DNA of 21,554 nt from positions 1 through 21,554 of the forward strand of contig CAZBPC010000059.1 of the NCBI GenBank assembly GCA_964493715.1, written 5' to 3'. Numbering within the stretch: the stretch's first letter is position 1; each line of letters begins with the position of its first letter. Shown here piece after piece: positions 1-6,123 of this stretch. The notes beneath the pieces were generated by a model. That model saw nothing but the letters and a program-made list of their open reading frames with translations. It made no database searches and was not told where the DNA came from. A program made the position numbers and the translations under genes. This stretch comes from an uncultured archaeon. GTDB lineage: Archaea > Asgardarchaeota > Lokiarchaeia > Sigyniarchaeales > SOKP01.

Positions 1-216
1 AGATGCCATAATTAAATGAAGACTCAAGGTAGATGGTTGATCTAATGAATTCTCCGTTTCGATATCTTTTAATAATGAGAATGCAGCATTATAATCACCT
101 TCATTGATCAAAGATTCTATTTTAATCAGTTCATCAGGTTTTCGTTGTGGGATCAAGATTTCCCTTAATTTAGTATAAATTATATTTCCAATCCAGTCTT
201 TTTTTTCTTCACTCAT
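1..216 (-). CDS. 5' part of a helical, probably TPR-repeat protein (runs off the window start)
   Basis: ATG at 216-214 opens a frame with no stop to base 1: MSEEKKDWIGNIIYTKLREILIPQRKPDELIKIESLINEGDYNAAFSLLKDIETENSLDQPSTLSLHLIMAS. GDYNAAFSLL resembles a TPR helix. Confidence 0.55.
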   Translation of the reverse strand, partial: MSEEKKDWIGNIIYTKLREILIPQRKPDELIKIESLINEGDYNAAFSLLKDIETENSLDQPSTLSLHLIMAS

Positions 217-892
217 TTAAATCATAATATATATTCAATACGTATTTGACAAATTCAATTTTCTTATCATAAATGCCTCATATAATTTTTATATATTTAA
301 CGTTTATAAAACTATTCTGAACAGCTTTCAGTATGATAGGAATAAATAATTTTATTATTTTAGAAGAAAAAGATTTTTTGATCCTTTGATTCATTATAGA
401 AAAAATAATAAATTAATATTATAAATTTTTATCCAATCAAATTCAGAGGTCTTTATCTTAAATCTCAATCTTCTTTTCGCTCACACTAGTTCATTCTTTC
501 CCAAATGAGAAGTTCCTCCTGCTTTGGAAATTCAATAAAAAATTTAAATTGTACTTTTTTTTCTTCAAATTCTCTCACTAATTTCATCTATCTCTCTCAT
601 AATGCTCACGTTCATTAAGGATTATAAAGATTATAATCTTTAGTCTCAATCAATTCCATTAAAAGAGTGTTTATCTATGCTAATAAGTTTAACACGTACA
701 TTACTCATTACCTTTTTGAATAAACGTAAAACTTCCTCTATATATGTCTACGCCAAAGGGACTATTAATAAAAGCCCTATCCCCAATAAATTTAACCCAA
801 CTTAAACTACTTATGGATCATTTGATATTTCAACCTTAATTAATAGGTTCAACTCTACTCGCACAAAGAAATCCGATAGGTGGCAACATAAT

Positions 893-2332: not shown

Positions 2333-3472
2333 TTAGGTTTTTTCTAACTCCATTTGACTAATGGCACGACCTGATCTAAAAGGAATGTCGTCCATGCTAT
2401 CTCCCGAAGCATACCCAAATTTCTCTTTAAATGCATCGTTTAATGATTGGAAGTATAGTGAAAGCGGTAAGTGTTGAGGACAGTTATTATCGCAATTTCC
2501 ACATTCGACGCAACGATCTGCTACGTGTGCAATGCGTGTTAGCTGGTACGTCTCTTTATTTATGGACTTTTCTTTACGCTTCTTCTGCACAATGCAATCT
2601 ACACAATAACAAACCGGACAACCTCTAATGCATGTATTACACATAGTACACGCTTGAAGTTTATCGATCTTTTCTGCTTGAGGTAATTTGTCCCATTCTT
2701 CTAGATCTTTTACTCTTTTTGCAAGTGCATTTTCTTTAATCTCTTTAATCTTATCCGAGAGTTTTGTCTTGAGATCACCTGAAAGTGGTTTCTTATCGAT
2801 CTTCGATCTTTCAACAAGTTCATTACCTTTATCAGAATAGACTTTTAAAATAATTTCATCCGAATCGATTGACATTGTTAATTCATTGAGACCTAAATCC
2901 GCAACAACAGGGATTTTACGAGTGCACCTACTGCAATTTTCAGCAATATCTAATGCTACATCAATAACACTTCCATCCTCCATTTTAAACATTAATCCCT
3001 TATCACCGATTTTTTCTCTAACAATTTTAGTCTTATCGATGTCTGGGAAATTTCTCATCTCTCGAGATACGTTAATAATCATTCCTCTATCTTCAAAAGC
3101 GATAATAAATAAATTCTCTAAACTAATTTGCTTTATTTTAGCAAGCTCAATTATAGCTCTGGTATCGCAAGGACGTGCAATAAGTCCGATTTTTTCATGT
3201 AAGGCCCCTTGTAGTGTTTTATGAAGGTATTTTGCTGCTGAATCAGTTCTTGCATATCCATAAGCTAACAAATTTGTTAGTGGAAATGAAGTTATATCCT
3301 CTACCTTTTCATATACTATGGGCTGAACGGTAAATCGATCTTCCACATTAGTTTTTTTATCGATTTTTGTCTCTGCTCCCAAAATCTTGTCTACAACTTT
3401 CTCTTTAAGGAGAGTTTGCAAGAGTTTTGGAAAGTCATCAATTTTAATTAGATATTCTGCAATTGAATCCAT
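2333..3472 (-). CDS. FdhB/FrhB-family F420-oxidoreductase beta-like subunit with C-terminal 2x[4Fe-4S]
   Basis: KIGLIARPCDTRAIIEL, NCSRC, CTMCNTCIRGCPVCYCVDC and CVECGNCDNNCP are typical of FdhB-like proteins. Confidence 0.85.
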   Translation of the reverse strand: MDSIAEYLIKIDDFPKLLQTLLKEKVVDKILGAETKIDKKTNVEDRFTVQPIVYEKVEDITSFPLTNLLAYGYARTDSAAKYLHKTLQGALHEKIGLIARPCDTRAIIELAKIKQISLENLFIIAFEDRGMIINVSREMRNFPDIDKTKIVREKIGDKGLMFKMEDGSVIDVALDIAENCSRCTRKIPVVADLGLNELTMSIDSDEIILKVYSDKGNELVERSKIDKKPLSGDLKTKLSDKIKEIKENALAKRVKDLEEWDKLPQAEKIDKLQACTMCNTCIRGCPVCYCVDCIVQKKRKEKSINKETYQLTRIAHVADRCVECGNCDNNCPQHLPLSLYFQSLNDAFKEKFGYASGDSMDDIPFRSGRAISQMELEKT

Positions 3473-3602
3473 GTATTTCCATCTCAGAGTTATTAAATTA
3501 TATTATACTTTTTTTAGTAATTTTCATAAACACTTATTTTTTATTCTTATGTTTTAAAATTTTATACTTTAAGGTAATATAAAACCTATGTGTTGTATGG
3601 TG

Positions 3603-3660
3603 CATGCCATTTCTTCGACCGAGTTCTCATTTTTTTAACTCGGTTTCATTAGATAACACG
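3603..3660 (-). promoter_or_regulatory. Eukaryote-like SECIS element 3' of mvhD
   Basis: Minus-strand RNA CGUGUUAU-CUA-AUGAA-ACCGAGUU-AAAAAAAUGAG-AACUCGGU-CGAA-GAA-AUGGCAUG. It has helix I, an AUGA/GA core, a perfect 8-bp helix II and an A-rich apical loop, directly downstream of UGA-containing genes. Confidence 0.88.
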
Positions 3661-3668
3661 TTAATTAT

Positions 3669-4142
3669 TCACGTTTTGGCTTTTTTCTTTGTGTCGCCCT
3701 TAGATCTTAAGGGACTTGGGCCTAATTCTCGTATGACTTTATCAAATGCAGTAGCCTCTTGTTGGAACTTTTGGCCTTCTGCTGCGGTGCACCATCCCAT
3801 ATGAATTCGATTTTCACTAATACCCATTGATCTGAGTACTTCTTTTACATACTCAACTTCCCGGTATGCAAAATAATTCCCAGTTTCATAATCGCATTCT
3901 TTTGGATATCATCCAATAATCATGACACCATCAGCTCCTCGCCCAAACGACCTCATTATTAGATCGGATCCCACTCTTCCTGAACATGGTACGAGTACGG
4001 TCCTAATTGAAGAGGGATATTGAGCTCGAATAGTTCCTGCCATATCTGCACTGCCATATCCTCATTTTTGTGTGACTTTCGTATTAAAAGCCTCATTCCA
4101 ACAGAGGAAGGCAATTATTTTTATATCAATATCTTCTATCAT
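3669..4142 (-). CDS. mvhD: MvhD/VhuD [2Fe-2S] hydrogenase delta subunit, selenoprotein (UGA at 4062-4064 and 3909-3911)
   Basis: MIEDIDIKIIAFLC...U27GYGSADMAGTIRAQYPSSIRTVLVPCSGRVGSDLIMRSFGRGADGVMIIGU78YPKECDYETGN...WCTAAEGQKFQ...ELGPSPL. Both UGAs are at conserved Cys positions. GAGG upstream of the ATG. Confidence 0.92.
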
Positions 4143-4155
4143 TTTATTTACCTCT

Positions 4156-6123
4156 TTACTCTTCTATAGGAAGTAATTCATCAATTAATGCCATGTATTG
4201 GACATCCCTAAAGTACGTCAGTTCGATTGCTTGTGATGGACAGATAGCGGCACACGTACCACAACCTCGACATTTAATTAAATCCACGACGATATTTCCA
4301 TTTTCATTGATTGAGATTGCACTATATGGACATGCTTCGATGCATTTATAACATTTAGCACATCGCTCATCAGAGGGGGTAGCTCGAATTAATTCCATGG
4401 TGTATTTACCTTTACCCATTGGAATACCTGCAGCTGATGCTGCACCTCGAGCTTGTCCGACAGCGTACGCAATTCCTTTTTGTCCTTGACATGAACCTGC
4501 GAGATATATTCCTGGAACTTTAGTGCTAATCGGATCTAATCTAGGATGGTATTCCTTGAGAAACCCATCAGGACTTTTTTCCATATTTAACACTTGTGCA
4601 ATTTCATTAGTACCTTGAGACGGAAGGGATGCTGATGAGAGAATCACCATGTGATATTCTTGTTGCACCACTGTATCAGCTCCAACGATTTCCATTTGAA
4701 CTTTTAGATTTTTCGTTAAAGGATCTTCTTCAATTTTTCCTACAAGTCCTTTAGTGAAAATGATTCCAGCATCTCGAGCTCTCCTGTAGTATTCCTCGTA
4801 ATCTTTTCCGCAATTCCTCATATCTATATAAGATACCATGATCTGGGTTTCAGGATGTTCAGATATTATTAGCTTAGAATTTTTTACTGATAAATTACAA
4901 CAAACTACTGAACAATATGGATTAGTCTTCACATCACGAGATCCAACGCAATTAATGAACAATATTTTTGTAGGTCGTTTTTTATCAGATGGTCTAATTA
5001 GATGACCATAGGTTGGTCCATTAGGCGCTAAAATTCTTTCAAGCTGAATTTGTGTCAGGACATTTTCGAACTTGCCATATCCATAATCAGGTCCCTGGTA
5101 GATATCCCAACCAGTAGCTACTATGATTGTGCCCACATCAAGTTCCACAATCTCATCTTGCATGCTAAAATCTATTGATTCTTGATCACATGCATCTACA
5201 CATCCGAAGCATTCGACACAGGAATCTCTTACGATATCATAGATTGCGGGTACTGCTTGAGCGAATGCAATATCAATGACCTTACGAGCCGAAAGATTCT
5301 CGTCAAAGAAGTTTGGGACATAAATCGGACAAGCATCAGTGCATTGTCCACACCCAGTGCACGTTTTTTCACTTACAAATCGTGCTTTTCTTCTCACTTT
5401 TACTTTGAAATTGCCAATATAACCATCAATAGAATCAACTTCTGAATATGTCATTAAATTGATTTTTGAGTGTCTATTGGCTTCAAGCATCTTTGGCCCA
5501 AGTATTCAAATGCTGCAATCATCGGTAGGAAATGTTCGATCTAACTGGCTCATCCTTCCTCCTATCGTGCTCTTTTTCTCCACTAAATAAACTTGATAAC
5601 CAGCATCACCTAGATCGATAGCAGTACTTAGTCCCGCAATTCCTCCTCCAACCACTAAAGCGGCTTTTGTGACTGGAACTGTTTTTGTAGGCACGTCTTC
5701 CAATAATCTTGCTCGTGCTATTCCTGCTCTAATTAGATCAATAGCTTTCAGGAGTGCTTTATCTCGCTCACCTTGATGCACAAATGAACAATGTTCTCTA
5801 ATGTTTACAAACTCTAAATATCGTGGAGGTAAACCTGCTTCAGCTAAAATTGCATGAAAGACGGGTTGATGCGTCTTTGGGGTGCACGCTGCAACCACGA
5901 TTCGATCCAATTTGGCTTCTATGATTTGTTCTTTTATGTAGGTAGATCCCCCTTCAGTACACATCGATAAATATTCGAATGCTTTGACGCCGGGATACGT
6001 ATTAAGTACTTCAACGATTTTAGGAACATCCAAAATACCAGCGATATTGATACCTCAGCGACACACGAAAACGCCAACGATAGATAATTCGTTTTTTAAA
6101 TCTTTGGTCTGTTTTCCAGACAA
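4156..6123 (-). CDS. hdrA: Heterodisulfide reductase subunit A, selenoprotein (UGA at 6055-6057 and 5506-5508), 655 aa
   Basis: One frame from TTG 6123 (AAGGTG upstream): VGVFVCRU23GINIAGILDV...GGGIAG...FPTDDCSIU206ILGPKM...CVGSRD...YCSVVCC...C-terminal ferredoxin. It joins track ORFs 5506-6033 and 4156-5490. Confidence 0.93.

Follow-up and report, generated by a model that had tools for sequence, protein, structure and literature searches.

A predicted bulge-helix-bulge mRNA intron of 30 nt in the coding sequence of mvhD, a selenoprotein gene of an Asgard archaeon

The window that we have analysed, a 21,554-nt stretch of DNA from an uncultured archaeon of the Lokiarchaeia, carries an mvhD gene in which the two halves of the conserved Cys-x-x-Sec motif are set apart: 12 residues (WNEAFNTKVTQK) separate the cysteine C14 (TGT, 4103-4101) from the selenocysteine U27 (TGA, 4064-4062), and the unspliced protein reads M..KIIAFLC14-WNEAFNTKVTQK-U27-GYGSADMAG. 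The question raised by this locus is whether the additional 30 nt are translated, passed over by the ribosome, used as a signal for selenocysteine, tolerated as an insertion in the DNA, or removed from the message. We consider it probable, at roughly 85%, that the 30 nt at 4066-4095 are a bulge-helix-bulge (BHB, tRNA-type) mRNA intron within the mvhD coding sequence, predicted to be spliced by EndA and RtcB; we infer that cutting and joining take place on the mvhD mRNA and that the unspliced form is not a functional message. A small BHB intron in the mRNA at these same positions had been the leading option of an earlier, sequence-only reading of this DNA, and it is supported here by orthologues that lack the insert and read C-W-K-U, by variants of the insert that contain a stop codon or measure 31 nt, by covariation, and by the fit of the predicted cut sites.

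The mvhD gene and its interrupted motif

The unspliced reading of mvhD runs over 157 codons (4142..3672) to the stop codon TGA at 3671-3669. The Pfam family PF02662 matches the translation with an E-value of 7.5e-40 and 136.2 bits (cut-off 22.3), the match starting at residue 24, i.e. after the insert, while the solved MvhD chains 9sw2_D and 5odc_D align only from query residue 25-26 onward. The first selenocysteine codon encodes U27 in the unspliced reading and would encode residue 17 after the predicted splicing. The gene is the middle member of a three-gene run on the minus strand, located between hdrA and a gene that resembles FrhB (Table 1), the three corresponding to a Sec-HdrA/MvhD/FrhB trio; 11 MvhD-like matches occur in the same genome. 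Downstream of the stop codon, the 3'UTR contains a hairpin with AUGA and GA motifs (3603-3660, minus strand; -15.6 kcal/mol, z = -3.19) that looks like the eukaryote-like selenocysteine insertion element, SECIS, described for Lokiarchaeota in the available text of PMC4989117, according to which these archaea place the SECIS in the 3'UTR. A search of Rfam with positions 3450-4300, at an E-value of up to 1, returned no match.

The insert is real DNA: in a DNA run of a further sample from the same habitat, the summed depth at position 4066 is 76.2 and none of the contigs is without the 30 nt, and variants of the insert occur on two independent metagenome contigs. With up to 3 mismatches allowed, the 30-mer has no second copy in the genome; at this level of similarity, it therefore does not qualify as a dispersed repeat.

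Table 1. Positions of the mvhD features discussed in the text, of the parts of its predicted BHB structure, and of similar inserts in the same genome
Feature	Position	Strand	Basis
mvhD/vhuD (FlpD family), two Sec codons	3669..4142	minus	Pfam PF02662, translation
hdrA with two in-frame TGA codons	4156..6123	minus	flanks mvhD
FrhB-like gene with Fe-S domains, downstream	2333..3472	minus	flanks mvhD
First Sec codon (UGA)	4062..4064	minus	aligned with TGA (printed W) of all homologues
Second Sec codon, U78 in the unspliced reading	3909..3911	minus	sequence, homologue alignment
Predicted exon 1 (47 nt), ATG ... TGT TGG AA	4096..4142	minus	sequence; boundary from homologue alignment
Predicted BHB intron, 30 nt, U GAGGCUUUU AAUAC GAAAGUCAC ACAA AA	4066..4095	minus	missing in 30/32 related loci; stop-bearing and 31-nt variants; pairing
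Predicted exon 2, A TGA GGA TAT ... to stop	3669..4065	minus	sequence, homologue alignment
Central 4-nt helix, 5' strand UUGG, in exon 1	4098..4101	minus	pairs with ACAA 4071-4068
Central helix, 3' strand ACAA, in the intron	4068..4071	minus	variant alignment, pairing counts
5' bulge AAU, predicted cut between 4096 and 4095	4095..4097	minus	invariant in 6/6 variants
3' bulge AAA, predicted cut between 4066 and 4065	4065..4067	minus	invariant in 6/6 variants
Intron hairpin h', 9-position stem GAGGCUUUU/GAAAGUCAC, one A.A mismatch, loop AAUAC	4072..4094	minus	fold, pairing counts
Exon-exon helices, 5' halves AUUGCC and UCCUC	4104..4115	minus	minimum-energy folds
Exon-exon helices, 3' halves GAGGA and GGCAGU	4050..4063	minus	minimum-energy folds, pairing counts
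rtcB insert, 29 nt, between PGGVGY and DINCGV	G000:C2:12134-12162	minus	loci L099, L105
NAD synthase gene	Pfam 6-143 and 144-242		profile continuity over predicted junction
Thiolase-like gene 1	Pfam 1-48 and 51-143		profile continuity over predicted junction
Thiolase-like gene 2	Pfam 14-49 and 52-143		profile continuity over predicted junction
Class-I aminoacyl-tRNA synthetase gene	Pfam 4-46 and 48-135		profile continuity over predicted junction
AMP-binding enzyme gene	Pfam 91-208 and 222-312		profile continuity over predicted junction

The elements that the sequence-only reading had described around the insert are all present. The hairpin GGCUUUU-AAUAC-GAAAGUC is located at 4092-4074, the flanking stems pair UCCUC (4108-4104) with GAGGA (4063-4059) and AUUGCC (4115-4110) with GGCAGU (4055-4050), all of them occurring in the minimum-energy fold, and the direct repeat AATGAGG is found at 4097-4091 and 4066-4060, with a period of 31. 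Deletion of 4066-4095 yields TGT TGG AAA TGA, i.e. C-W-K-U, as the homologues read; due to an AA microhomology, three 30-nt deletions are equivalent in their result. The predicted spliced junction consists of TGTTGGAA joined directly to ATGAGGATAT, and the predicted 3' cut falls one base ahead of the first selenocysteine codon. The 73-nt region has a folding energy of -20.8 kcal/mol (z = -3.28), a stability that none of 200 shuffled sequences reaches. As a separate observation, the AATGAGG repeat is kept, with at least 6 of its 7 bases, in the four 30-nt variants of the insert and is not kept in the 31-nt ones; it is possibly a chance occurrence, a folding competitor for UCCUC, or the footprint of an insertion.

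Database relatives at an E-value of up to 0.001 number 175, of which 120 were listed and 24 of those aligned. The insert is missing in all 24 aligned homologues, which read C-W/L-K-U (FLCW-K-W-GYG as deposited, where the second W is the database rendering of TGA); among the 120 listed homologues, exactly two residues lie between Cys and Sec in all 118 that are informative, the remaining 2 being N-terminally truncated and therefore uninformative for the spacing. A close match is found in 40 of 60 related genomes, and 32 loci that were fetched show the U-G-Y-G motif; the insert is missing in 30 of these 32, its only carriers being the window and a genome of the same genus, G023. The nearest genome copy that lacks the insert belongs to G006, with 87.9% nucleotide identity over 1 kb. 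The serine codon that pairs with AUUGCC is AGT only in the two insert-bearing loci of the window group, the other loci of that group having TCN.

Three RNA runs (X19, X20 and X21) were compared at the junction, and they contain only contigs that are diverged from the strain of the window. In X20, a contig of 1000 nt lacks exactly the 30 nt, but 54 of its 1000 bases differ from the window (5.4%); over the same stretch, the insert-bearing L096 is 9.0% and the insert-less G006 is 9.5% diverged, and since insert-less relatives of similar distance exist, the source of this contig could be of either kind and it proves nothing about splicing. A contig of X19 continues into a G006-like junction and comes from an insert-less relative, while the contigs of X21 are diverged and leave the site uncovered.

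Insert variants, their common fold and the predicted cut

An insert at the same site is present in five other sequences, i.e. G023, G121, G143 and the metagenome loci L090 and L096. In G023, the insert has 30 nt at the identical position and contains an in-frame TAA. In G121 and G143, which belong to another genus and whose mvhD is of the other subgroup, 31 nt are located between TGT TGG AA and A TGA, so that MTGNN..KILAFLCW and KUGYGAGDMAG.. do not share a frame. In the window, L090 and L096, the latter two being 30-nt variants, the insert preserves the frame and contains no stop codon. All six insert-bearing genes are otherwise full length and have both of their selenocysteine codons.

G121 and G143 came from searching the 133 family genomes with a sequence pattern, and L090 and L096 from a scan of metagenomes, which also returned a copy of the G023 sequence; the patterns required TGGAA before the insert and AAR TGA GGN TAY GG after it, and mvhD inserts with other flanks are missed by them. 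A scan of one genome per prokaryote species, a set that may omit the window's own genome, found G023, G121 and G143 only. The remaining 18 stretches returned by that scan (17 bacterial ones and L085) are chance matches; the loci L052, L060, L064, L091, L092, L094 and L095 match the pattern and are not mvhD, and most of the 46 matches of the family scan come from insert-less genes that contain a TGGAA in their N-terminal coding region.

The insert has a patchy distribution, with carriers in 4 of the 133 family genomes. When placed on a protein tree with 35 copies, the six rows that bear the insert require three changes of state, at least two of which are forced by well-supported branches; the insert has thus been gained, lost or transferred more than once. 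The exon-1 end of the 31-nt genes, which belong to the other subgroup (L054 and L056), reads GCCTTCCTCTGTTGGAA, the same as in the window (4096-4112), while insert-less members of that subgroup read TTYATGTGYTGGAA. Two readings would agree with this shared end: the intron may have been transferred along with adjoining exon sequence, or selection may have favoured the exon-exon helix.

Divergence proceeds faster in the insert than in the surrounding exons. Between the window and L090, the divergence is 10% in the insert and 2.1% in the exons, between the window and L096 it is 16.7% and 8.1%, and between G121 and G143 it is 25.8% and 8.9%, respectively. The insert codons of the window and L096 differ by 0 synonymous and 3 non-synonymous changes, which are small numbers, and the exon codon changes comprise 23 synonymous and 12 non-synonymous ones. 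The TAA in G023, the frame shifts of the 31-nt variants and the faster, mostly non-synonymous change together point to an insert that is not under protein-coding constraint.

The six variants were aligned in 74 columns, and they have a common layout: the exon-exon helices, UUGG, AAU, a stem of 9 positions with a loop of 5-6 nt, ACAA (CUAA in G023), AAA and UGA. With the BHB model, 89.3% of 150 alignment cells are paired, a share that drops to 37-47% once the 3' partners are shifted by 1-3 columns. Four pairs vary on both sides across the variants, one of them in the exon-exon helix, where pair 5-67 is U-A in the 30-nt and C-G in the 31-nt variants; in the intron hairpin (helix 4), 90.7% of the cells are paired and three of the nine pairs have changes on both sides. 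The covariation score is 0.213, compared with a shuffled mean of 0.156, and is reached by none of 500 shuffles, although the six variants are related to one another and these pairing statistics overstate their independence. Folding gives z-scores of -3.28 in the window and -4.16 in G023, compared with -0.60 for the same-sized region of the insert-less G006. The sequence-only reading had held that inserts of variable or non-triplet length with conserved pairing among Asgard orthologues would speak for an intron; the comparison has yielded both, in the form of the 31-nt inserts and the covarying helices.

The pairs of the central helix UUGG/ACAA are U-A, U-A, G-C and G.A, all four positions being paired in G023 (UUGG/CUAA). 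The canonical hBHBh' motif, with two 3-nt bulges and exactly 4 bp between them, is therefore departed from, since G.A stands as the fourth pair in five of the six variants, including the window; what is found is a relaxed BHB with the helices h and h', the type that is accepted by (alpha-beta)2 EndA. In energetic terms, the strict BHB fold is 6-8 kcal/mol less stable than the minimum-energy fold and is never itself the minimum-energy fold among the variants, although it nearly is in G023; the predicted probability of the central pairs is about 0.2 in the window and 0.7-0.8 in G023, and RNAalifold prefers a 4x4 internal loop over the strict BHB. This thermodynamic measure is not discriminating, because inserts of the same genome that are confirmed by Pfam or homology behave alike: the central-pair probabilities of the five Pfam-continuous inserts and the rtcB insert presented below span 0.02-0.87, so that the low value in mvhD is no argument against a BHB. 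In one fixed register, a central helix of at least 3 pairs combined with a stem of at least 8 of 9 pairs is found at 4,937 of the 7,337,260 genome positions, a frequency of 6.7e-4.

The predicted cuts of the cbf5 intron lie between residues two and three of each bulge, as stated in the available text of PMC2738675. When this rule from the same text is applied to mvhD, i.e. after AA in both AAU and AAA, it removes 4095-4066 and leaves UGU UGG AAA UGA, and the cut that it predicts coincides with one of the three deletion boundaries permitted by homology.

Splicing enzymes and similar inserts in the same genome

The EndA family PF01974 is found twice in the genome, on two separate genes that are located on the contigs C5 and C58. 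One of them is closest to the catalytic subunits of solved two-subunit enzymes (3p1z_B, 3ajv_B, 2cv8_A and 2zyz_B) and corresponds by alignment to the C-terminal half of two-domain EndA; the second gene aligns with the N-terminal, structural half. The pair is predicted, from these alignments, to form an (alpha-beta)2 arrangement, and PMC5829648, in the portion available, describes Asgard archaea as having a broad-specificity (alpha-beta)2 EndA that is linked to the cleavage of relaxed motifs.

The ligase family PF01139 (rtcB) is found once, and this gene, too, is interrupted by an insert, of 29 nt, that forms a perfect BHB: UUGG is followed by the bulge AUA, cut after AU, an 8-bp stem, CCAA and the bulge AGA, cut after AG. 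The same cut rule restores GGVGYDINCG, with Pfam coordinates 1-47 and 48-426 on the two sides, and the insert is present in 5 of the 133 family genomes. This rtcB gene is the only one of the genome, and RtcB would be needed to ligate the very mRNA that encodes it.

In all, at least six further inserts of 29-31 nt with the layout of the mvhD insert split conserved genes of the genome, including rtcB. Five of them, with 30-31 nt, are located at the loci L106 (contig C44), L107 (C39), L108 (C19), L109 (C120) and L110 (C28) of the genome (G000), and in each of these five genes a single Pfam family continues over the predicted junction (Table 1); beside its 5' bulge, the insert in the AMP-binding gene shows the mismatch that is also seen in mvhD. 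Further candidate inserts were noted on the contigs C28 (start 34406), C70 and C40. A scanner for BHB motifs gave 1520 candidates across the genome with a loose filter, compared with 1498-1623 in frame-shifted controls, and 44 with a strict filter, compared with 37-41 in the controls; since the scanner is unspecific, it yields no count of introns in the genome, and only matches that were checked individually have been used, the five Pfam-continuous inserts being among its best ones.

With these components, the proposed mechanism would proceed as follows. In the hdrA-mvhD transcript, the exons would pair with each other through AUUGCC/GGCAGU and UCCUC/GAGGA, the intron would fold into a 9-bp hairpin, and the short central helix UUGG/ACAA would set out the 3-nt bulges AAU and AAA; the two-subunit EndA would cleave after the second base of each bulge, RtcB would ligate the exons into UGU UGG AAA UGA, and the ribosome would read the C-W-K-Sec motif that is usual for the family, giving an MvhD of 147 residues.

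Alternative explanations and related systems

Translation of the insert would give an MvhD with the 10-residue loop NEAFNTKVTQ between Cys and Sec, either as the sole product or beside the spliced form. In archaea, transcription and translation are coupled, and coupled ribosomes could reach the insert, located 47 nt into the gene, before it is excised; the 30 nt are, moreover, in frame and stop-free in the window, L090 and L096, even though three open inserts out of four, at 10 codons each, are about what chance would give in AT-rich sequence by a rough estimate. The in-frame TAA of G023 and the frame shift of the 31-nt versions stand against this explanation, as do the mostly non-synonymous changes of the insert next to the mostly synonymous ones of the exons, the preservation of RNA pairing by those insert changes that do occur, the two-residue spacing that all 118 informative homologues show, out of 120 listed, and the break of the Pfam and solved-structure alignments at the insert; the plain 10-residue loop that the sequence-only reading had retained is thus unlikely, and we judge a translated product of this kind to be quite improbable. 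The same reading had also considered a recoding structure, i.e. that the hairpin, which ends one base ahead of UGA27, aids the readthrough of this codon as selenocysteine; the hairpin is situated upstream of the UGA, however, and is missing in all 118 informative Sec-type homologues among the 120 listed, which decode the same UGA without it, a search of Rfam gave no match, and a separate structured hairpin with AUGA and GA motifs already occupies the 3'UTR, the usual place of a SECIS according to the available text of PMC4989117. A role of the hairpin in recoding is, on this evidence, hardly conceivable.

Ribosomes that hop over the 30 nt, as in the translational bypassing of phage T4 gene 60 or the yeast mitochondrial byp elements, would account for a compact hairpin within a coding gap that must be skipped for the conserved protein to be made, and for a gap that is bracketed by the 7-nt direct repeat AAUGAGG. 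In the bypassing of gene 60, the peptidyl-tRNA must re-pair with a matching landing codon. In mvhD, the take-off codon would be UGG (tRNA-Trp), while the codon before AAA UGA is CAA (UAA in G023), so that the take-off and landing codons which this option of the sequence-only reading calls for do not match; a landing guided by the direct repeat would be out of frame, due to its period of 31 nt, and the repeat is not retained in the 31-nt variants. Bypassing would, in addition, leave the conserved exon-exon helices and the bulge geometry without a role, and the same genome has sister inserts with perfect BHB motifs; we therefore attach very little probability to it. Equally little is attached to a neutral or damaging insertion in the DNA, such as a small repeat or the footprint of a mobile element, in genes that are decaying or are tolerated through paralogues: one copy might be dispensable among 11 MvhD-like matches in the genome, and the distribution over 4 of 133 family genomes is patchy, but the six insert-bearing genes are otherwise intact with both selenocysteine codons, their exon changes are mostly synonymous, the copy of the window keeps its structured 3'UTR hairpin, one fold is kept by six sequences of two lengths at an identical site, and the 30-mer is unique in the genome at up to 3 mismatches.

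Several known systems are close to the predicted mvhD intron. For Crenarchaeota (Desulfurococcales and Sulfolobales), the available text of PMC2738675 describes a BHB intron in the pre-mRNA of cbf5, whose splicing was demonstrated by cDNA; as presented there, this intron shares with the mvhD insert a short length within a protein gene, a fold that is often a relaxed, BHB-like one, a cut that is predicted to fall between bulge residues 2 and 3 and to be made by a hetero-oligomeric EndA, and a patchy gain and loss among relatives. The mvhD insert differs from it in that its host is an Asgard archaeon and its gene encodes an electron-transfer subunit that is a selenoprotein, in that it interrupts a Cys-x-x-Sec motif at a point one base ahead of the UGA while being in frame and stop-free in the strain of the window, and in that it is one of at least seven look-alike inserts of 29-31 nt in its genome; spliced cDNA is known for cbf5, whereas the mvhD intron is predicted here from sequence comparison. 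The BHB introns of archaeal tRNA and rRNA have in common with it the 3-nt bulges, the 4-bp helix, the flanking helices, the size range and the encoded enzymes (EndA and RtcB); in mvhD, however, the host RNA is an mRNA, and codons must therefore supply the exon-exon helix. The bypassing elements (T4 gene 60 and the mitochondrial byps) are likewise short structured coding gaps that are missing from the protein, but mvhD is without matched take-off and landing codons and without a stop codon after the take-off site. In HAC1 and XBP1, the mRNA is cut by Ire1 and joined by tRNA ligase or RtcB, under regulation by stress. These two resemble the predicted mvhD intron in the protein-only, spliceosome-free removal of a short mRNA intron followed by RtcB-type ligation, and differ from it in the endonuclease, in the recognition motif and in their regulation by stress.

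Among the papers that full-text searches returned, protein-only splicing of archaeal mRNA is described for cbf5 of Crenarchaeota only. A word search in the main text of papers on Asgard selenoproteins gave no mention of an interrupted vhuD or mvhD, and mRNA goes unmentioned in a preprint of 2026 that deals with Asgard tRNA introns. If the mvhD insert is spliced, Asgard archaea, the closest known relatives of eukaryotes, would routinely need RNA splicing for metabolic genes, for translation genes and even for the genes of splicing itself; gene callers and selenoprotein surveys would mis-read such genes, an apparent 12-residue spacer hiding a normal CxxU, and the patchy distribution would provide a system for the study of intron gain and loss in protein genes.

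A wider reading combines three parts, and as a whole we regard it as rather doubtful. The near-uniform mini-introns of 29-31 nt, with a 9-bp stem, a loop of 5-6 nt and often a 3' bulge of AA plus any base, cut after AA, may move between Asgard genes and paralogues together with flanking exon sequence; the mvhD insert, whose retention would give a loop-bearing MvhD because it is in frame, may act as a switch, with retention leading to a loop-bearing, probably cluster-defective MvhD and splicing to the active selenoprotein; and the intron in rtcB would tie the outputs to ligase activity. If true, the mvhD switch would amount to alternative splicing of a primitive kind in an organism closely related to eukaryotes, and the intron in rtcB would make the output of all such genes depend on the ligase activity that already exists.

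A last observation concerns the first cysteine of the motif. At G152:C9:30210-30269, the string that matched the pattern, taken by itself, reads ...GGG ATT TGA TTT AAG TGA GGC TAT GG in frame with U-G-Y-G; this is possibly an mvhD in which the codon of the first motif cysteine is also TGA, i.e. U-F-K-U.
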